This document shows, one piece after another, positions 3,705 to 39,286 of a stretch of DNA of 64,000 bases. The notes under the pieces are model-generated. The model made no database searches. It saw nothing but the letters and a program-made list of their open reading frames with translations, and was not told the origin of the DNA. The first letter of the stretch is position 1; every line of letters starts with the position of its first letter. The stretch is from Patescibacteria group bacterium. Lineage in GTDB: Bacteria; Patescibacteriota; Microgenomatia; UBA10105; UBA927. The translations under genes and the position numbers were made by a program. The stretch lies in the NCBI GenBank assembly GCA_035510735.1, contig DATKGN010000013.1:128596-192595 (forward strand). The letters run 5' to 3'.

Positions 3705-3868
3705 ATATTATCCCACCTATGGTGTACACCCTTCGATCAAATAATTCACCCGCTTCCGGCGGTATCGCTTTATGAACGATGGATCAATATGTACTAAAAT
3801 AGCCTCAAACCGGATAATTATCCTCTAAACATGCTATACTGCATAGACTGAAAGGAGACAAACAAACT

Positions 3869-4069
3869 ATGAACGGTACAATTAAGACGAAAACAGATAG
3901 AGGATTTGGTTTTATAGCTCGCGATGGCGAGACGAAAGACCTATTCTTTCATTCTAAAGATTTAGTAGGCGTCACATTTGACGAACTACAAGTCGGTGAA
4001 AAAGTAACATTTGAAGTCGTAGATGGTCCGAAAGGCCCAAGTGCGAAAAATGTAAAACGAGCTGTCTAA
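3869..4069 (+). CDS. cspA: Cold-shock protein (CspA family)
   Basis: 66 aa reading MNGTIKTKTDRGFGFIARDGETKDLFFH with RNP1/RNP2 motifs; preceded by an AGGAGA RBS. Confidence 0.9.
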   Translation: MNGTIKTKTDRGFGFIARDGETKDLFFHSKDLVGVTFDELQVGEKVTFEVVDGPKGPSAKNVKRAV

Positions 4070-4095
4070 GCTCTTTTTTAACTTTAACCACAAGA

Positions 4096-4125
4096 AAAAG
4101 CTCCGCCTATAAGCGGGGCTTTTTC
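4096..4125. terminator. Rho-independent terminator after csp, possibly bidirectional with the convergent gene ending at 4149
   Basis: AAAAAGCTCCGCC-tataa-GCGGGGCTTTTT hairpin with a flanking A-run and T-run. Confidence 0.55.
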
Positions 4126-4148
4126 GTACACACCGTCCAAGATAGTCA

Positions 4149-8451: not shown

Positions 8452-9957
8452 TTATAGGATTTTACTAGTCACCAACTTGGGTGGAGTTGCAAGAATCGAT
8501 TGATAGAGCATCATGTATTGTTTAGCCGATTCAGTCCATGAAAAATCACGTTTCATCGCTGATTCTACCATGCGGTAATGTTTTTTCGGATTGGTGGTTT
8601 TCACACGGAGAGCACTTATGATCATATTTTCAAGTTCTATGGAAGATGAGTTGGTAAATATATAGCCGTTCTTGCCATTTATGACCGTGTCATTAAGGCC
8701 GCCCGTCGCCCGTGCAATCGGCAGCGCCCCATAGCGCATCGCATTCATTTGGATAAGGCAACAGGGTTCATAATAAGATGGGATCATCATAAAATCGCTC
8801 GCTGCATAAATGAGTGAAGCGAGTTCATCATCATACACCGTGACAACGGCAATCCTGTCAGGATTAAAAGCGCGCAGGAGATGAAACCGCTCTTCCCACG
8901 ATTCTTCTCCCTGACCCATAATCACAAACTGACACTCCTTAAGGGCCTCCCGCACAATCATTCGGTGAATGAGGTCAATCCCCTTTTGCTTCTGGTCGAA
9001 CCTGCCGATGTACCCGATCACCGGAATTGACGCATTGACGGGCAAACTTAGCCGCTCCTGCAGCTTTTTTTTGTTAATCTGTTTACCACGGGTAATATCG
9101 ACAACTGCCGCATCATTGACGCTGTCTTTTTCCTTGGCAGAATACCGAACACCCAAAAATATATTGGTTGCGGGATTTTTCAATGTATAGTCAATACCGT
9201 TTAATATAGCCGAAGTTTTATACATATTTCCCCTGACGGCAACATCGAGTCCCGCACCGTGTTCTTCCGTCTGGATTTCTTTGAGATACGTCGGCGACAC
9301 CGTATTGATCCAGTCAGCGTTTACGATTCCTTCTAATAACAAATTAAATTGATGCGTTTCTGATTCCCATTTAACCATAGACAATGATTCGCGCGGTATG
9401 TGTAATTTATCGGCAATGACGGCAGCAAACGACCGCTGATGGGATATACAGTGAATCGTAAGAAGAGTCTTAATATTTAAATTATTTACTTTTATTAAAA
9501 GAGGAATTAACCCGCAATGATTATCGTTACAGTGAACGATATCAGGACGCCAGGTACCGAACAATCCAGCTTTGAGAGCCTCGACAACTGCAAGTCCGAA
9601 TATAACGAATGTTTCTGGAATCGGTTTATCAAAATACTCTTTATTTCCGATGAGGTACACAGGAATGTCGGTTGTTAAAAAAAATATTTTATGAATGGTG
9701 ATCGCGACTTTCTGTTTTCCGTAGAAAACGGTAAATTCCGCTACCTTCTTCTTGCGTTGACCCAATACGTTTAATGCTTTGTAATGAGGTATCACCAGGC
9801 GGATATCTACCCCCATGGATTTAAGTGCTCGAGGAAGAGAACGCGCAACTTCACCTAACCCTCCGACTTTTAAGAACGGCTCAACTTCCCATACTGCGAA
9901 TAATACATTTAGAATTGTAGGCTGCTTTGAAGTTTTTTTTATTGGCTTTTGAACCAT
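8452..9957 (-). CDS. glgA: Glycogen synthase (GT5, ADP/UDP-glucose dependent)
   Basis: N-terminal VWEVEPFLKVGGLGEV (the KVGGLGDV signature of GlgA) and overall GT-B architecture. Confidence 0.85.
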   Translation of the reverse strand: MVQKPIKKTSKQPTILNVLFAVWEVEPFLKVGGLGEVARSLPRALKSMGVDIRLVIPHYKALNVLGQRKKKVAEFTVFYGKQKVAITIHKIFFLTTDIPVYLIGNKEYFDKPIPETFVIFGLAVVEALKAGLFGTWRPDIVHCNDNHCGLIPLLIKVNNLNIKTLLTIHCISHQRSFAAVIADKLHIPRESLSMVKWESETHQFNLLLEGIVNADWINTVSPTYLKEIQTEEHGAGLDVAVRGNMYKTSAILNGIDYTLKNPATNIFLGVRYSAKEKDSVNDAAVVDITRGKQINKKKLQERLSLPVNASIPVIGYIGRFDQKQKGIDLIHRMIVREALKECQFVIMGQGEESWEERFHLLRAFNPDRIAVVTVYDDELASLIYAASDFMMIPSYYEPCCLIQMNAMRYGALPIARATGGLNDTVINGKNGYIFTNSSSIELENMIISALRVKTTNPKKHYRMVESAMKRDFSWTESAKQYMMLYQSILATPPKLVTSKIL

Positions 9958-10088
9958 CTATATGAGAGTATAACACAAATAGATTATATTGGCGCGCTAT
10001 TTTGCACCATAACAATATACAATAACACCTTTTGACGGCCTGAACCAACATACTTATGGTATTTTTCTGATGACTGAAGGCCTAAACG

Positions 10089-10715: not shown

Positions 10716-11081
10716 ATGGATCAGACTGAATTTGAATCGCTCGTCAGAGAATCGCTCGACAGTCTTCCAAAAAAAATTGCCGAGAGATTAAATAATGTTG
10801 AAGTCATGGTCGATGTCTGGCCTGATGAAGAGGAACTACGGGCAGGTAATATAAAACCGGGAATGACACTTTTTGGATTATACCGCGGCGTTCCGCAAAC
10901 ACACCGGATAAACTATAACGCTGCAATCCCTGATAACATCACGATATTCATGGGGCCGTTTCTTTCGATATTCGGTGATAACCGTCTGCTTTTAAAACAA
11001 GAGGTTAAAAAAACCGTTCTTCATGAAATCGGCCATCACTTCGGCATGAGCGATGAGGAGATCAGGGCTGCAGGGAAATAA
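10716..11081 (+). CDS. Putative Zn-dependent metallopeptidase (DUF1025 / zincin-like)
   Basis: C-terminal HEIGHHFG (HExxH) motif; start chosen at MDQTEFES (the ORF track starts it at 10650). Confidence 0.6.
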   Translation: MDQTEFESLVRESLDSLPKKIAERLNNVEVMVDVWPDEEELRAGNIKPGMTLFGLYRGVPQTHRINYNAAIPDNITIFMGPFLSIFGDNRLLLKQEVKKTVLHEIGHHFGMSDEEIRAAGK

Positions 11082-15475: not shown

Positions 15476-16411
15476 ATGGTCGCGCGACACCAAAGAAACC
15501 ATCATGGAAACAGGGGTACAATGCTTCTTTTTTTCATAGCGCTTCTTGGCATCGGCATATATGGAGGAACCAGTTTTTACAATTCGCGTAAAATAATATC
15601 TCCTATCAGTGAAGTAAAAAAGAAGCAATCGTCAATTTTCAACCTGCTACACCCACAAAAAAACCCCGACACCCTTAAAACGGCAATCAAAAATCAAATT
15701 GGAGACGCGTGGGAAAATTATTCTGTTTATGTCGTTGATTTCAATTCTCCGTTTGTCATGGCGATTAACGAATCAACGATCTTTACTGCTGCTTCAGTCA
15801 ACAAAGTACCAATCCTCGCCGCCCTTTATGCGGAAGCACAAAGCGGCACTATCAACTTTGACACCGTTATAACGCTCCAGGAAGACGACATACAGGATTA
15901 CGGCACGGGCAGCATCCGATATGATCCGCCGGGCACAACGTATACCATTAAGACCCTTGCCAGACTTATGATGCAAAAAAGCGATAATACGGCGGCCTAT
16001 CTGTTGGCCAACTATACTATCGGATTGGATGTGGTTCAAAAATATGTAAATGGCTGGGGTATGACACAAACCGATATGGCAAACAACAAAACGTCAAATA
16101 CCGACATGGCAATTCTATTCAAAAAGATCATGGATAAAAAGATAACGAGCCCAGCACTATCGGTAGAAATGTTGGGATTTCTCAAAGACAGTGATTTCGA
16201 GGATCGCCTGCCGGCGCTTCTGCCTAAGGATGCCATCGTTTATCACAAAATCGGTACGGGAACTGGAACCGTCCATGATGTTGGGGTCGTTGTCCACGGG
16301 GACACGGAATATTACATCGGAATATTCACAAGCGATATCACTGATGAAGAACAGGCGTCAACATTAGCAGCCGAGGTGTCAAAAACAGTCTACGATTTTA
16401 TGGTGAGGTAA
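15476..16411 (+). CDS. Class A beta-lactamase-like serine hydrolase
   Basis: S-x-x-K (SVNK), SDN and KTG-like (KIGTGTG) motifs in the correct order. An alternative start at 15521 (MLLFFIAL...) gives a signal-anchor. Confidence 0.75.
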   Translation: MVARHQRNHHGNRGTMLLFFIALLGIGIYGGTSFYNSRKIISPISEVKKKQSSIFNLLHPQKNPDTLKTAIKNQIGDAWENYSVYVVDFNSPFVMAINESTIFTAASVNKVPILAALYAEAQSGTINFDTVITLQEDDIQDYGTGSIRYDPPGTTYTIKTLARLMMQKSDNTAAYLLANYTIGLDVVQKYVNGWGMTQTDMANNKTSNTDMAILFKKIMDKKITSPALSVEMLGFLKDSDFEDRLPALLPKDAIVYHKIGTGTGTVHDVGVVVHGDTEYYIGIFTSDITDEEQASTLAAEVSKTVYDFMVR

Positions 16412-22049: not shown

Positions 22050-22436
22050 CTATTTCAATGCTAAAATCGCTTTATGCAGAACTTCAAGAGACAGAGTTGC
22101 GCAGCGCATCCGCGACGGAGTCAGTGTCGTCCCCAGCATTTCCGTAATATCCTCTGACGTTAATGAAAGTGCAGTTTTAACGTTCATACTCCTCACTTTA
22201 TCAGTAAGCATAGATGCGGAAGCCTGGCTTATCGCACATCCCTCTCCCGAAAACCGAATATCGGTAATTTCCTTTTTTTTATTTACGTTTATTTCCATAC
22301 TAATGCGGTCCCCGCACGTCACGTTGCCTTCTTCAATACTACTGTCCGGTTTTTGAAGATGACCGAAGTTATGAGGGTTTTTATAATGATCAAGGATTAT
22401 TTCGCGATATATATCCATAATGTTCTTCCCTGTCAT
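22050..22436 (-). CDS. sufU: Fe-S cluster assembly scaffold SufU/IscU (NifU N-terminal family)
   Basis: Conserved GDRISMEI, GCAIS and C-terminal Cys (MRCATLS) ligand positions of IscU/SufU. Confidence 0.8.
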   Translation of the reverse strand: MTGKNIMDIYREIILDHYKNPHNFGHLQKPDSSIEEGNVTCGDRISMEINVNKKKEITDIRFSGEGCAISQASASMLTDKVRSMNVKTALSLTSEDITEMLGTTLTPSRMRCATLSLEVLHKAILALK

Positions 22437-22569
22437 CCCCGACCTGCTTCGCCCATCGTAGCCTTGGCGAAGTTGGGATCGGGGATTGGTTTTTAGATTT
22501 AATCAAAATACATATCGATTCCTACCTGCCTACCTGCGCAGGCAGGAGCGGGAATGACAACGGATAGAT

Positions 22570-24859: not shown

Positions 24860-26275
24860 TCATCCAACTGAACCCTCCATCTGTAACTGTATTAATCTGT
24901 TCATTTCGACGGCGTATTCTAGCGGCAGTTCTTTAACGATCGGCTCAATAAATCCGTTCACGATCATCGATTCTGCCTGTGCTTTGGCAATCCCCCGGCT
25001 CTGTAAATAAAACAGTTGCTCGTCACCGATTTTTGATACCGTCGCCTCGTGTTCAATCTGAACACTTTGCTCATCAATTTTCATGGTCGGGTACGTATCG
25101 GATCTTGATGTCTCATCAAGGAGAAGCGCATCACACACGACTTTACTTTTCACATGTTTTGCGCCCGGATACACCTGCACTAGCCCCCGGTATGAAGTCC
25201 TTCCGCCCGATTTACTAATGGACTTTGAAATAATCTGAGAAGTCGTCTCTGAAGCCGCATGAATCATCTTCCCGCCCGCATCCTGATGCTGTCCACGACC
25301 TGCATAGGCAATGGATAATACTTCTCCATGTGCTTTACGGCCCATGAGATAGACGCTCGGATATTTCATTGTCAGTTTACTGCCGAGGTTGCCGTCAACC
25401 CACTCCATTATCCCTTCTTCCTCAACACGTGCGCGTTTCGTCACAAGATTGTAAACATTCGTACTCCAATTCTGAATAGTCGTATACCGAACACGCGCGC
25501 CCTTCTTAACAATAATTTCAACAACCGCACTATGAAGAGAATCAGTGGTATAAATAGGCGCCGTACAACCTTCAACATAATGAACGAAGCTTCCTTCGTC
25601 CGCGATAATAAGCGTCCGCTCGAATTGTCCCATATTTGCAGCATTAATGCGGAAGTATGCCTGAAGCGGTAAATCGACATGAACGCCCTTCGGTATATAT
25701 ACAAACGACCCGCCTGACCAGACACTGCTGTTTAACGCTGCAAATTTATTATCCGCCGGCGGGATAACGGAGCCGAAATATTGTTTTACAATCTCAGGAT
25801 ATTCCCGAAGTCCCGAATCCATATCGAGAAAAATAACGCCCTTTTTATGCAGAAGCGCATTTATACTCTTATAGACTACTTCTGATTCGTACTGAGCGCT
25901 TACTCCAGACAAAAACTTTTTTTCGGCCTCAGGGATGCCGATGCGGTCATAGGTATCTTTAATTTCAGCGGGCAGATCACTCCAAGATTTTGCTCTATCC
26001 ATTATCGGCTTGATGTAATAATAAATGTTATCAAATTGAATGCCAGAGAGATCTCCTCCCCACGTCGGAAGCTTTTTTGCAAGATAATATTGGTAGCTTT
26101 TCTCACGGAACGCAGTCATCCAAGCAGGCTCGCTCTTATGCCAGCTTATGTTCCGAACCACATCATTATCCAGACCCCGCTTCGACTTAAAGACGTAGTT
26201 CTCCTTCTTATGAAATCCGTATTTATACGTATCATCGATTATTGTCTTCATAATAATGCGCGAGGAGGCATACAA
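24860..26275 (-). CDS. sufB: Fe-S cluster assembly protein SufB
   Basis: About 465 aa in the SufB family. An alternative start at 26251 (MKTIIDD) is possible. The repeat element abuts the start codon. Confidence 0.9.
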
Positions 26276-26533
26276 TTTGCAGCACCGTCACGCGCCGGGA
26301 AATATCCCCTGTTCACGCGCTTTTGGTCGCCATAAAATTTAGATCCGGTCTTCTGTTCGCTCACGAAATAATGATAACTTGGTCCATTCTGTTCATCTCG
26401 TTCGCAAGTGAATCCGGACTAAATTTTATAGACTCCCCGCGCGACAATTCGCTCTATTCAATCAATATAACGCTAGCTTTGACGGATATCCCTGATCCTG
26501 AGATCCGGGATCTAAGGACGCACAAATTGCATG
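26276..26533 (+). repeat. Copy 1 of a roughly 260-280 nt structured intergenic repeat (candidate ncRNA or MITE-like element), inserted between sufC and sufB
   Basis: Near-identical flanks shared with 37267-37546 (AGCACCGTCACGCGC...TTTAGATCCGGTCTTC...GTGAATCCGGACTAAATTT...TAGACTCCCCGCGC...GACGGAT.TCCCTGATCCTGAGATCCGGGATCTAAGGACGCACAAATTGC) and a divergent central segment. Internal complementary segments sit at 26335-26348, 26414-26426 and 26505-26515. No intact ORF is shared by the two copies. Confidence 0.6.
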
Positions 26534-26537
26534 CCGA

Positions 26538-27356
26538 CTAAAGCGCAGGCAAATATTTTTCGTACCCCTCATCCTCAATCTCTTTTGCTAAATTTGCTTT
26601 CCCGCTTTTTACAATTTTCCCTTTAACGAGAATATGAACAACGTCGGGCCGCAGGTATTTCAGTATCCTCTGATAATGCGTAATGATAATGACGCCGGTT
26701 CCCCTTTTGGAAAGTAGCGAAATACCCCTTGCCACAACTTTCAGGGCGTCAACATCAAGCCCCGTATCGATCTCATCGAAAATCGCAAATTTCGGAGATA
26801 AGGTAAGTGCCTGCAGCATTTCTACCTTTTTCTTTTCCCCTCCTGAAAATCCGTCATGAATCCCGCGCGAAAGAAAACTCTCGTCAAGATTGAGTTCTGC
26901 AGCGTTCTTCTTTATAACGTTCATAAAATCCAGAATGGATATGCTTCCGCCGTTCCAACGTCGCGCCAAAAGCGGATTCTGAACATTTTTCTCTTTTGCG
27001 GCCGGCTTACTGCCGAATAATTCTTGATACGAAGTCCGGAGCAAATTTATGACGCTCACACCCGGAACGGCTATCGGGGACTGCAAGGCCAAAAATAGTC
27101 CCGCTTTCGCCCGCTCTTCTGTCGGAAGCAATAAAATATTTTTTGCATTAATAAGCACTTTGGAAAGCTTCTTATCGATTTCGTAGGCGGGGTGACCCAT
27201 GAGTGCATAAGCGAGCGTCGACTTACCGCTTCCGTTTGGCCCCATCACCGCATGAATTTCGCCGGAGGCAACCGAAAAGGATATACCGCTTAATATCTCT
27301 TTATGGTTTATGCTGGTATGAAGGTCTTTAACCGATAAAACGTCGTGACTCTGCAT
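26538..27356 (-). CDS. sufC: Fe-S cluster assembly ATPase SufC
   Basis: ABC ATPase with Walker A GPNGSGKST, signature FSGGEKK and Walker B. Confidence 0.9.
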   Translation of the reverse strand: MQSHDVLSVKDLHTSINHKEILSGISFSVASGEIHAVMGPNGSGKSTLAYALMGHPAYEIDKKLSKVLINAKNILLLPTEERAKAGLFLALQSPIAVPGVSVINLLRTSYQELFGSKPAAKEKNVQNPLLARRWNGGSISILDFMNVIKKNAAELNLDESFLSRGIHDGFSGGEKKKVEMLQALTLSPKFAIFDEIDTGLDVDALKVVARGISLLSKRGTGVIIITHYQRILKYLRPDVVHILVKGKIVKSGKANLAKEIEDEGYEKYLPAL

Positions 27357-30147: not shown

Positions 30148-30174
30148 ATATATCCATCTTACTCAGATTTGTCC

Positions 30175-30211
30175 TATATGTCATGCTACATACTTACGTA
30201 GCATAGACATA
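30175..30211. promoter_or_regulatory. Near-perfect inverted repeat (candidate operator) upstream of the 88-aa gene
   Basis: TATGTCATGCTAC-atacttac-GTAGCATaGACATA at 30-65 bp upstream of the start codon at 30147. Confidence 0.4.
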
Positions 30212-30327
30212 AGGATCCTACATATTATTTATACGGACAACTTTCAGTGAAAAATCTGATTAGATGGGTTTATACTCAAAAACTATCGCTCAAACCTGAG
30301 TTTTTGTAGTATATCTCTACTTTAACA

Positions 30328-35963: not shown

Positions 35964-36515
35964 ATGAAAGTAGTGCTCATAATGGTTTCTTCTGTTAACG
36001 GTAAGATTACCCGTGGTGATGATCCGGTTGTGCGGAAGTGGACATCGAAAGAAGATAATGAACTCTTTGATTCTCTTAAGAAGAAATATAATCTCATCGT
36101 GATGGGAAGAAAAACATTTGAAGCGGCGAAAAAGAATATCCCTGGAAAAGATAACACTCTGCGGGTCGTCTTAACGAGAAATCCTAAAAAATACCGTAAA
36201 CTATCCGTCCGAGGCAAATTGGAGTTTACAAGCTCAACTCCCAAAAGACTCGTGAGATCACTGGAATCCCGTGGATACTCGAACATGCTTCTGGTCGGCG
36301 GCGGGAAAATAAATTCCTTATTTTTAAAAGCGGGTCTCATTGATGAATTACATCTCACAATAGAACCCGTGCTATTCGGAGAAGGAAATAATCTCCTGGA
36401 CAACGACATGTCACATATACGGTTGAAGCTTGTATCTGTCGACATGTTAAATAATTCTGGTACCCAACACAATATCTACAGAATTCTGAAAAAACATGAA
36501 CATAAGAGCAATTAA
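35964..36515 (+). CDS. Dihydrofolate reductase family protein (RibD C-terminal domain-like)
   Basis: MVSSVNGKIT...LIVMGRKTFE...LLVGGG pattern of the RibD_C/DHFR fold. Confidence 0.7.
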   Translation: MKVVLIMVSSVNGKITRGDDPVVRKWTSKEDNELFDSLKKKYNLIVMGRKTFEAAKKNIPGKDNTLRVVLTRNPKKYRKLSVRGKLEFTSSTPKRLVRSLESRGYSNMLLVGGGKINSLFLKAGLIDELHLTIEPVLFGEGNNLLDNDMSHIRLKLVSVDMLNNSGTQHNIYRILKKHEHKSN

Positions 36516-37236
36516 AACAGGAAAAATAGTTCCGAATCACGAAAAACTCACAACTATTTTAGACAAATACATCTCCGATTTCAATGAACGATCGGTTCTC
36601 GTTATTACATCCAAAATTGTATCCATATGTGAGGGCAGAGTGATAAAAAAAGATAATAAGAAGAAAAACGATTTAATTCCTCAAGAAGCGGATTATTATG
36701 TTCCTCCATCGAAGAGTAAATACGATGTTACGCTTACGATAAAAAATAACCTGCTCATTCCCTCTGCGGGTATTGATGAGTCAAACGGTAACGGATATTT
36801 TATTCTCTGGCCCAAAAATCCACAGCGGACGGTTAACGAAATTCGTTCATACCTGGTAAAACGATTTAAATTAACCAAAGTAGGAGTTATTATTTCTGAT
36901 AGTAAAACGACACCGCTTCGCTGGGGTACGACAGGTACAGCACTGGTACATAGTGGATTTAGTGCACTCAATGACTATATCGGAAAACCTGATATTTTCG
37001 GAAGATTGCTAACGATGACGAAGGTAAATGTTATGGACGCGCTCGCAGGAGCTGCCGTTTTGGTAATGGGCGAAAGCAACGAACAGACACCTCTTGCCAT
37101 TATTACCGATACTCCGTTTGTTCAATTTCAAAAACGAAACCCGACGAAAAAGGAATTGAATAATCTTCATATCGATATGTCAGACGACGTGTATGCTCCT
37201 CTTCTGACTTCGGTAAAATGGGAAAAGAAAAGGTAA
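36496..37236 (+). CDS. CofE-like protein (F420-0:gamma-glutamyl ligase family)
   Basis: ITSKIVSICEGR...SAGIDESN pattern of CofE/FbiB N-domain; overlaps the DHFR-like gene by 20 bp. Confidence 0.65.
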   Translation: MNIRAIKTGKIVPNHEKLTTILDKYISDFNERSVLVITSKIVSICEGRVIKKDNKKKNDLIPQEADYYVPPSKSKYDVTLTIKNNLLIPSAGIDESNGNGYFILWPKNPQRTVNEIRSYLVKRFKLTKVGVIISDSKTTPLRWGTTGTALVHSGFSALNDYIGKPDIFGRLLTMTKVNVMDALAGAAVLVMGESNEQTPLAIITDTPFVQFQKRNPTKKELNNLHIDMSDDVYAPLLTSVKWEKKR

Positions 37237-37266
37237 ATTAATCGAATTTCGCGGAGAGGTGTATGT

Positions 37267-37546
37267 TTTGCCAGCACCGTCACGCGCAGGGAAAGATCCC
37301 ACTGTTCACGCGCTTTTGGTCGCTATAAAATTTAGATCCGGTCTTCAGTTCGCTCCCTTCGACTTCGCTCAGGGCAGGCACGGAATAGTTCGTTTACCCC
37401 GAGTTTATCGAGGGGCAAGTGAATCCGGACTAAATTTATAGACTCCCCGCGCAACGATTCCACCCCTGTTCAATCAACACCACCTCAAGCTTTGACGGAT
37501 GTCCCTGATCCTGAGATCCGGGATCTAAGGACGCACAAATTGCGCG
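37267..37546 (+). repeat. Copy 2 of the roughly 260-280 nt structured intergenic repeat
   Basis: Same conserved flanks as 26276-26533 in the same orientation, with a longer divergent core. Sits between convergent genes (CofE-like, and DsbD-thioredoxin). Confidence 0.6.
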
Positions 37547-37561
37547 CGAACAATGTATCAA

Positions 37562-39286
37562 TTATCCGAATGTAAATGCGTACAACTCCATATTACCGTC
37601 AAGAAATTCCAACTTTAACTCATGAGAGCCCGGATTGTTCAGTTTTATCAGACGATAAAGTCTATCTTCAACAACGGTAACAATTCCGTTTTGCACATCA
37701 TCTCCCGCATCATCTGCCGTTATCACATTCCCATCCAGATAAATGCGGAAATGCCCCGGCTGGCCGTTATTTGTTCTCATCACTAAAAATAACTGCCCCG
37801 CCGCGAATCGAAATGTAAGAAAAGAACCGGCTTTTGGCGTTGCATTTTCTCCCGACACATTCCAAGGGCCGGCAAGAGCAAAATAATCCTGGCCGATTGT
37901 CGATGGTGTTGTATACGTTATCTCCTTATCAGGAGTCACAACTTCAGGTGAAGCAAATCGTTCTAACCGGTTATACCCAATGTATGTCTCAGGCGTTTGA
38001 GCGTTTATATCATAGGTAGTATTGTGAACAGGCATGTTCGCGACGTTTACTCCCGTCTCAGCCAGCAGTTGCTGAATCATTTTCTCCGATTCATCGTAAT
38101 TACCCTCACCGAAGTGTGTTGAGCGGATTTTACCGTCTTTGTCAATGAAATATTTCGCCGGCCAATACTGATTGCTATACGCATTCCATGTGGCGTAATC
38201 GTTATCCTGCATAACGGGATATGTTATACCGAAATCGCTGATCGCTTTTGTCACATTATCGGCGTTTTTTTCAAATTCAAATTCCGGTGTATGTACACCG
38301 ATAATAACGAGTCCTTTATCGACGTATTTTTTGTACCACGATTCAATATACGGGAGCGTTCGGATACAGTTAATGCATGTGTAGGTCCAGAAGTCGACAA
38401 GAACCACTTTTCCGCGGAGTGATGCCATCGTAAGCGGCTTTGTATTAAACCATTTTCCGCCGGGAACGAGTTCCGGCGCCTGTGGATACATATTGAGCCC
38501 TTTCATGAGCTGGGCAATTGCGTTTGTACCGGTCGACTGTTGTTTCCGTTTGGCAAGAGCATCTTCAACTGGCGCAATATTCTCGAGGGCCGTGAGCCCT
38601 GATCCGTAGTTCGGAAATGTTGTAAGAATGTAATTTTGAAACGTCCGGTCCGCGTTAAAATATAATCCGACGGCGAGGAGAATCATCACAACACCGAAAA
38701 ACCGTTGAATAGTTGAAGAATTACTGATGAGCCACGGTACGCGATTGAGAAGACTTCGTCCTGCTATAAGAAGAAGAAACATCGGAATTGCCGTTCCTAT
38801 TGCATAAGACAACGTTATAAAAACAGAGCTTAAATCCACATTGTTGGTCGCGGCAAGTGCGATGACGGAAGCCAATATTGGACCGACACACGGCGTCCAA
38901 AGCAGTCCGAGGCTTAAACCCAATAGAATACCACCCCAAAACCCCGATTTCTGCGGACGGCTTGAGACGGTAGATGACAATTTTCCGAAAAGCCTTTCCG
39001 TCAGCTTTTGCACCTGTGGAACTAACAGGGCTACACCGAAGACGGCGACGATAATGATGGAAATAATCCTGAGCGCGTCGGGAGGAATGTTAAGTAATTT
39101 TACAATTGCCGACAACGCGAGAGTAAAAAATGTAAAACTCGCGATAAACCCGACGACTATTCCGGTCGGTCGTCTCTTACCCCCGCCGATACTACCCGAT
39201 AAAACAATCGGCAATACCGGTAAAATGCAGGGGGAAAGTATCGTAACGATTCCGGCTAGAAATGCGAAAATGATAAGAAGTATCAT
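37562..39286 (-). CDS. Thiol:disulfide interchange fusion protein: CcdA/DsbD transmembrane domain plus thioredoxin-like (TlpA/ResA) domain plus C-terminal beta domain
   Basis: N-terminal ILSPCILPVLP (DsbD/CcdA Cys motif), second TM Cys (WTPCVGP), then WTYTCINC thioredoxin CxxC. Confidence 0.75.
   Translation of the reverse strand: MILLIIFAFLAGIVTILSPCILPVLPIVLSGSIGGGKRRPTGIVVGFIASFTFFTLALSAIVKLLNIPPDALRIISIIIVAVFGVALLVPQVQKLTERLFGKLSSTVSSRPQKSGFWGGILLGLSLGLLWTPCVGPILASVIALAATNNVDLSSVFITLSYAIGTAIPMFLLLIAGRSLLNRVPWLISNSSTIQRFFGVVMILLAVGLYFNADRTFQNYILTTFPNYGSGLTALENIAPVEDALAKRKQQSTGTNAIAQLMKGLNMYPQAPELVPGGKWFNTKPLTMASLRGKVVLVDFWTYTCINCIRTLPYIESWYKKYVDKGLVIIGVHTPEFEFEKNADNVTKAISDFGITYPVMQDNDYATWNAYSNQYWPAKYFIDKDGKIRSTHFGEGNYDESEKMIQQLLAETGVNVANMPVHNTTYDINAQTPETYIGYNRLERFASPEVVTPDKEITYTTPSTIGQDYFALAGPWNVSGENATPKAGSFLTFRFAAGQLFLVMRTNNGQPGHFRIYLDGNVITADDAGDDVQNGIVTVVEDRLYRLIKLNNPGSHELKLEFLDGNMELYAFTFG

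Follow-up and report, generated by a model that had tools for sequence, protein, structure and literature searches.

Two copies of a structured intergenic repeat with variable hairpin tips in a Patescibacteria genome

Genomic setting of the two copies

The sequence considered here is a 64-kb stretch of DNA, referred to throughout as the window, in which a unit of about 280 nt is present in two copies, lying 11 kb apart and in the same (direct) orientation. Copy 1 (272 nt, 26259-26530) and copy 2 (294 nt, 37250-37543) were delimited by alignment together with predicted folds, and in each of them the minus strand is the one that folds better. The two copies match each other by blastn with E = 4e-56, and a repeat search of the window recovered two blocks common to both, one of 56 nt at 98% and one of 57 nt at 95% identity.

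Copy 1 is situated in the suf operon, with the sufC-like ABC ATPase gene (26538-27356, minus strand; Pfam ABC_tran and synteny with relatives) upstream of it and sufB (24860-26251, minus strand; Pfam SUFBD_core) downstream. With its start placed at 26251, the SufB protein is identical to one recorded at NCBI for a Patescibacteria group bacterium. The spacer between the two genes measures 286 nt (26252-26537) and is filled by copy 1, which leaves 7 nt to the sufC stop codon and 7 nt to the sufB ATG. Copy 2 lies between two convergent genes, as had been stated in a preliminary description of this locus, and the nature of both neighbours was confirmed by Pfam. The left neighbour is a CofE/F420-ligase-like gene (36496-37236, plus strand; PF01996, E = 1.2e-35), and the right neighbour is a DsbD_TM-thioredoxin fusion gene (37562-39286, minus strand; PF02683, PF08534, PF13905 and PF17991), whose product consists of DsbD_TM, Redoxin/Thioredoxin_8 and Thioredoxin_10 domains. 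The better-folding strand of copy 2 corresponds to the 3' side of the DsbD-thioredoxin transcript, and the start of both copies is located no more than 20 nt from the stop codon of a minus-strand gene.

The claim that both copies share the same flanks also held. The conserved left block of copy 2 (37271-37355) is identical to copy 1 (26280-26362) at 79 of 85 positions (93%), and the right flanks agree at 115 of 130 positions (88%), including a stretch free of differences, the 42-nt block at 37502-37543 of copy 2 and 26489-26530 of copy 1, which holds the hairpin CCUGAUCCUG/CGGGAUC..AGG. Beyond the left block the similarity is weaker, about 68% identity, and can be followed to about 37250, where copy 2 begins with CGCGGAGAGG (37250-37259; CCUCUCCGCG on the minus strand), a weakly conserved end whose predicted pairing partner is GCGCGGGGAG of the inner block. 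The extent given previously for copy 2, 37267-37546, was therefore right in substance and needed adjustment at its limits, as the similarity really begins some 17 nt further left and stops at 37543.

At least six sequencing runs have yielded Logan contigs of the same organism, and these contigs all end inside the 42-nt identical block, as is expected at k = 31 from two or more identical copies. Among the Logan and ENA contigs of this organism, the sequence of the element is invariant for either copy.

Predicted fold and strand preference

Both copies are predicted to adopt a closed fold with several helices. On the minus strand, the layout starts from the 5' end with a small hairpin, followed by a 12-bp hairpin inside the invariant 42-nt block and then by a 7-bp hairpin with a 14-nt loop, which holds the second of two variable patches (V2, see below). 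The next part is a domain closed by a predicted 9-bp helix formed by GCGCGGGGAG with CCUCYYCGCG (helix 5 of the RNAalifold consensus), which is retained in both copies through reciprocal G-C/G-U changes. This closed domain encloses a 16-bp interrupted hairpin (AAAAUUUAG-UCCGG-...-UUC), tipped by the variable centre (V1), together with one more nested hairpin. The arms of the long interrupted hairpin in copy 2, ATAAAATTTAGATCCGG on the left (37325-37341) and CCGGACTAAATTTAT on the right (37425-37439), pair with each other in all folds. In copy 1, the whole sufC-sufB spacer is closed by a predicted terminal helix of 14-15 bp.

The two strands differ considerably in predicted stability. For copy 1, the minus strand gave -106.7 kcal/mol (z -5.39) and the plus strand -81.8 kcal/mol (z -2.49); for copy 2, the corresponding values were -115.0 kcal/mol (z -3.49) and -99.1 kcal/mol (z -2.54). 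The minus-strand folds contain 13-14 G-U pairs, against 4-7 in the plus-strand folds, and on the minus strand all four one-sided substitutions in the core helices keep their pairing as G-U. This strand assignment is at odds with the terminal helix of copy 2, which survives on the plus strand only, through two G-U pairs. As to covariation, 22 of 500 shuffles scored as high, a value that comes from two sequences only and from a structure derived from the same two.

The minus strand is the sense strand of both sufC-sufB and the DsbD-thioredoxin gene, so that the unit would be transcribed within those mRNAs without a promoter of its own. Scans for promoter-like and terminator-like signals returned values at or below chance.

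Variable centre and second variable patch

Sharp differences between the copies are confined to the apical loops of two hairpins. The variable centre V1 measures 59 nt in copy 2 (37356-37414, GC 0.56) and 41 nt in copy 1 (26363-26403, GC 0.37, more exactly 0.366), so the longer and GC-richer insert reported earlier for copy 2 is real; the string then quoted spans 37355-37415 (61 nt, GC 0.574). The second patch, V2, comprises 11 nt in copy 2 (37478-37488), in the 14-nt loop of the 7-bp hairpin, and 10 nt in copy 1 (26466-26475). Neither V1 nor V2 has a complementary or matching sequence of at least 12 nt elsewhere in the window.

The centres of the two copies resemble each other no more than expected by chance, as 487 of 1000 shuffles scored as well when the comparison was restricted to the centre. 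On this ground, the V1 difference is a replacement and not decay by point mutation. An alignment can be drawn in which a 24-nt motif appears as a clean insertion between homologous centres, yet this interpretation was rejected because the centre-restricted similarity is at chance.

The insert of copy 2 had been described as containing its own stem, CCCCGAG...CGAGGGG. The insert is indeed predicted to fold as a hairpin of its own, but that particular pairing appears in neither the minimum free energy nor the centroid structure; both pair CCCTTCGA with TCGAGGGG and CTCAGGG with CCCCGAG instead. With these pairings, V1 of copy 2 would form a two-tier hairpin stacked on the scaffold hairpin. The suggestion that the variable module folds independently while the flanks maintain the long-range pairing thus agrees with the predicted folds, in which it is a separate hairpin on the tip of the long-range stem. 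In the same way, the picture of a conserved scaffold with a variable internal module is accurate as anatomy, with conserved flanks and apical variable parts. The tips may vary as they do since apical positions would leave the rest of the fold undisturbed.

A short widespread motif in the centre of copy 2

Part of the copy 2 centre, CCCTTCGACTTCGCTCAGGGCAGGCAC (37355-37381, plus strand), is an instance of a widespread motif of about 26 nt with the consensus cccTTCGgCTTCGCTCAGGGCAGGC, and it occurs once in the window. Among viral contigs, 3 contain the exact 22-mer and 17 the 17-mer, and the sequences around it are unrelated throughout; several of these contigs have mutually complementary flanks, so that the motif lies in a hairpin loop. 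On a Sphingomonas plasmid, a small GIY-YIG nuclease gene has the motif as its 3' end (the protein terminates in ...ALRLRSGRTRE), and in Trichlorobacter a transposase gene contains it. None of the relatives' loci has the motif, it matches no Rfam family, and literature searches on its peptide translations and on Patescibacteria repeats returned nothing relevant.

Since unrelated sequences, namely 17 viral contigs and a GIY-YIG nuclease gene, carry the same motif, it looks foreign to this genome, and copy 2 appears to have acquired its GC-rich centre rather than evolved it in place. The tip of copy 2 may have been remodelled by the gain of this short GC-rich motif, which elsewhere is linked to small GIY-YIG nuclease genes. 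Its near-exact recurrence in unrelated viruses, in plasmids and in the genome of the window, often in a hairpin loop and at the end of a small GIY-YIG nuclease gene, may deserve more attention than the repeat.

The sufC-sufB junction in relatives

The closest further SufB relatives share 81-90% identity with the protein of the window, and Candidatus Gottesmanbacteria are among them. In 29 related loci that contain both genes, sufC and sufB overlap or are separated by no more than about 100 nt (106 nt in the locus L022), and in two further relatives with 88-89% sufB identity they overlap. The L022 spacer occupies 9895-10000 of its locus. In the locus L067, which has 90% sufB identity, the spacer is 185 nt long (66-250), unrelated in sequence and structured (z -2.8). 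Since more than 25 relatives have either a closed junction or a short spacer of unrelated sequence, copy 1 is a lineage-specific insertion at the sufC-sufB junction.

Considered by itself, the junction carries different structured spacers of 185, 106 and 286 nt in three close lineages and is closed in most relatives. Unrelated structured inserts at sufC-sufB of close relatives may matter more than the repeat. It was also observed that sufB has no purine-rich ribosome-binding site; CCUCCU is found 9-15 nt upstream of its ATG (26252-26268, minus strand), and L022 has CCUCCC.

Gene order around copy 2 departs from that of relatives, in which the gene after DsbD is msrB (L022) and the one after cofE encodes a CAP-domain protein (contig P0008).

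When 381 kb of relatives and the window itself were searched for further copies with blastn, with nhmmer and with a covariance model of the 3' block and the V2 hairpin, only the known two were recovered. An exact 19-mer gave 5 hits in GTDB genomes, where about four are expected by chance on a rough estimate, and none of these was accompanied by the rest of the element. No match was obtained for an exact 28-mer in JGI metagenomes, for two patterns in viral contigs, or for blastn against phages; against plasmids, for which the centre of copy 2 (37340-37430) was the only query, just the short motif was matched.

One short similarity was noticed in L022. In copy 1, V2 lies within the 14-mer CTAGCGTTATATTG (26463-26476, minus strand), and the L022 spacer has this 14-mer in the same orientation (9937-9950). 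The corresponding alignment scored 28, against 15.5 +/- 2.2 for shuffled sequences (0 of 300 as high); similarity in the surrounding sequence is marginal (p about 0.06), copy 2 has no such match, and the L022 spacer gave no match to the covariance model. The shared 14-mer may be what is left of the unit in L022, ancestral spacer sequence kept in copy 1, or a constrained site.

Searches for a known family, an enzyme and a coding sequence

Rfam gave no match for either copy at the gathering threshold, and relaxing the cutoff to E <= 10 brought up nothing but chance hits to lncRNA and scaRNA models of eukaryotes. No transposase, integrase, recombinase, reverse transcriptase or nuclease was found by Pfam in the 46 ORFs of the window that were scanned. 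The unit had been likened to a modular RNA or a cassette-carrying element. The latter comparison found no support, as the centre is a non-coding segment of 41-59 nt and the Pfam-scanned window ORFs include no integrase or recombinase. Nor was there support for a conserved functional RNA family, in view of the missing Rfam match and the absence of the unit from orthologous junctions and from 381 kb of relatives.

Several specific candidates were rejected. Attachment sites of an island do not fit, because they would place sufC inside the island and sufB outside it, whereas the two genes are neighbours in all relatives. An integron attC site or gene cassette was dismissed on account of the lack of an integrase among the findings, the length of the unit (272-294 nt, compared with 57-141 bp for attC) and the non-coding centre. 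An IS200/IS605-derived PATE would have one short target sequence directly 5' of the left end of every copy, but here the flanks differ between the copies on either strand (AATG vs ATTT, and GCAT vs GCGC). As for an IS110 bridge RNA or other guide scaffolds, the neighbours of the two copies are sufB, sufC, the cofE-like gene and the DsbD-thioredoxin gene, with no recombinase or nuclease adjacent.

No reading frame is conserved between the copies, and indels break the frames differently. It is highly improbable that a small protein is encoded on the plus strand at the left end of both copies. Such a protein would account for the Shine-Dalgarno-like AGGAGG/GGAGAGG found in both copies 5-7 nt before a TTG or ATG that opens an ORF of 21-22 codons (26262-26342 and 37252-37330, plus strand), and for the peptide QHRHA(P/Q)G(N/K)IP common to the two ORFs. 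However, the frame shifts after codon 11-13, so that the C-termini differ, and the purine-rich run is equally explicable as one strand of a predicted helix. A six-frame query returned no similar protein from a database of 5.8 billion clusters; this search missed the known copies as well, which indicates that gene callers predict no ORFs in the element, and the negative result is thus uninformative.

Comparison with known repeats and scaffolds

ERIC/IRU elements of Enterobacteria are imperfect palindromes of 127 bp in transcribed intergenic regions. The unit resembles them as a non-coding imperfect palindrome located inside operons or after stop codons and co-transcribed there, with size variants that arise by insertion at a fixed internal site and with no obvious target-site duplication. 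Copy 1 in particular lies inside the sufC-sufB operon and forms an imperfect palindrome with a long hairpin whose tip is variable. The window unit differs from ERIC in being about twice as long, in having several helices and not one, in being known from two copies, and in its Patescibacteria host. By this comparison, the unit behaves most like ERIC-type repeats; the likeness is one of behaviour, and a sequence relationship is not expected.

BOX elements of Streptococcus pneumoniae are modular (boxA-boxB-boxC), and their variation consists in the copy number of a defined module. Compared by description, they share with the unit conserved terminal modules, a variable internal module and a stable stem-loop when transcribed, whereas the centres of the unit are unrelated sequences. 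Guide scaffolds, including the IS110 bridge RNA, TnpB/IscB omega RNA and TIGR arrays, also combine a conserved scaffold with short variable looped segments. Unlike them, the unit has no adjacent recombinase or nuclease, is not in a tandem array, has a V1 far longer than a guide, and showed no target complementarity of at least 12 nt in the window.

With MITEs, Correia and NEMIS elements the unit shares small size, the lack of coding sequence, structure, a dispersed intergenic location, conserved ends and a variable centre. Its copies, two in the 64-kb window, are 272 and 294 nt long with no conserved reading frame, and the orthologous site at the sufC-sufB junction is empty in relatives, as is the case for MITEs. 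A terminal inverted repeat of 13 nt with 1 mismatch can be recognised in copy 1 (GGCATACAATTTG / CAAATTGCATGCC), and the match is lost in copy 2, whose left end reads GGTGTATGTTTTG. There is no target-site duplication directly abutting the two copies, as the ATG found on either side of copy 1 has no counterpart at copy 2. Since target-site duplications and consistent terminal inverted repeats are both lacking, the unit should not be classed as a strict MITE.

A different, classical MITE was identified in the suf/PIG-L cluster of a more distant relative (locus L039), in two copies of about 143 nt (10770-10912 and 15827-15969). It has terminal inverted repeats of about 20 bp (CCGGGTAGTAGAATTTCGA), 4-bp target-site duplications (ATGA, TATG), a variable centre and a strong fold (z = -5.0), whereas the window unit has neither such repeats nor such duplications consistently. 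Together with the L067 insert, this element shows that, in this clade, small structured non-coding DNA has settled more than once at junctions of the cluster.

Origin and possible function of the unit

Taken together, a unit of about 280 nt with a closed multi-helix fold and no conserved frame was added at two unrelated gene junctions. The explanation we favour, at roughly even confidence, regards it as a dispersed intergenic repeat, non-coding, about 270-295 nt long and specific to its lineage, in a Gottesmanbacteria-related Patescibacteria genome; such a repeat would be comparable to ERIC, Correia elements or MITEs and would ride on neighbouring transcripts. The classical MITE of L039 speaks for such a repeat, because it demonstrates that small palindromic intergenic elements do colonise the clade. 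The unit may have spread by copy-and-paste, either through an enzyme acting in trans and encoded elsewhere or through palindrome-aided recombination or template switching. It would then be carried passively on minus-strand transcripts, for copy 1 the mRNA of sufC-sufB and for copy 2 that of the DsbD-thioredoxin gene, at its 3' end. ERIC, REP and Correia elements are known to affect mRNA processing or stability, and a large stable stem-loop such as this one could do so too. Against a dispersed repeat, only two copies are known, there is no consistent target-site duplication or terminal inverted repeat, and the scanned ORFs of the window contain no transposase, integrase or nuclease gene.

Two of these points would be natural if the unit had arisen as a one-off segmental duplication or gene conversion of a spacer, possibly born at sufC-sufB, with tips later remodelled by indels and with neither mobility nor function. 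We consider this unlikely, though deserving of attention. The two known copies are 11 kb apart in direct orientation and lack both a target-site duplication and a usable terminal inverted repeat, and the tips of long palindromes are prone to deletion and replacement. The orthologous L022 spacer, moreover, shares its 14-mer with copy 1 and not with copy 2, which hints that part of copy 1 may be ancestral to the locus and not inserted. A single duplication of this kind is difficult to reconcile with the sharp, matching unit ends at two unrelated junctions, or with a unit that is closed and highly structured and not arbitrary DNA; the independent, unrelated structured inserts at similar junctions of relatives suggest recurrent insertion instead. 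The strand preference raises another question, as the folding asymmetry and the four substitutions kept as G-U pairs would fit selection at the RNA level better than a purely selfish DNA palindrome. A structured minus-strand RNA acting in cis or in trans, with a scaffold that presents V1 and V2 as exchangeable loops and thereby gains copy-specific specificity, is accordingly a doubtful but serious candidate; the loops could be, for example, base-pairing or protein-binding modules, or the whole could be an intercistronic processing or stability element. Besides the far better minus-strand folds in both copies (z -5.39 and -3.49, compared with -2.49 and -2.54), their richness in G-U pairs (13-14 vs 4-7) and the preserved pairing at all one-sided core-helix substitutions, this candidate draws on the apical position of both V1 and V2 and on the start of both copies less than 20 nt from a minus-strand stop codon. 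It is weakened by the lack of conservation in relatives, whether at orthologous sites or elsewhere in 381 kb, by promoter- and terminator-like signals not above chance, and by the terminal helix of copy 2, kept on the plus strand only by way of G-U pairs. In addition, the covariation is weak (22 of 500 shuffles as high) for a structure derived from the only two sequences, and V1 and V2 have no complementarity of 12 nt or more elsewhere in the window. A bolder version, in which the minus strand represents an undescribed RNA scaffold of the candidate phyla radiation, with V1 and V2 as specificity modules for an effector encoded elsewhere and with a dedicated mechanism that generates copies and loops, appears very improbable, and no evidence shows the unit to be a new kind of modular RNA.

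If the dispersed-repeat explanation is correct, the unit would be another case in which small palindromic intergenic repeats have colonised Patescibacteria, whose genomes are very compact, and the colonisation would reach inside an essential Fe-S cluster operon. It would also illustrate that short-read assemblies of Patescibacteria break at such repeats.

Other structured spacers in the window

Three other long spacers of the window are structured. The spacers at 22357-22569 (z -5.6 on the minus strand) and 3705-4148 (z -4.2 on the plus strand) have strand-biased folds, with z-scores from mononucleotide shuffles, and carry no Rfam annotation. The third, an AT-rich spacer of 180 nt (30148-30327), has a strong fold on either strand (z about -5 to -6) and includes a palindrome of about 40 nt that is nearly perfect; one Logan contig of the same organism starts within it, at about 30255.
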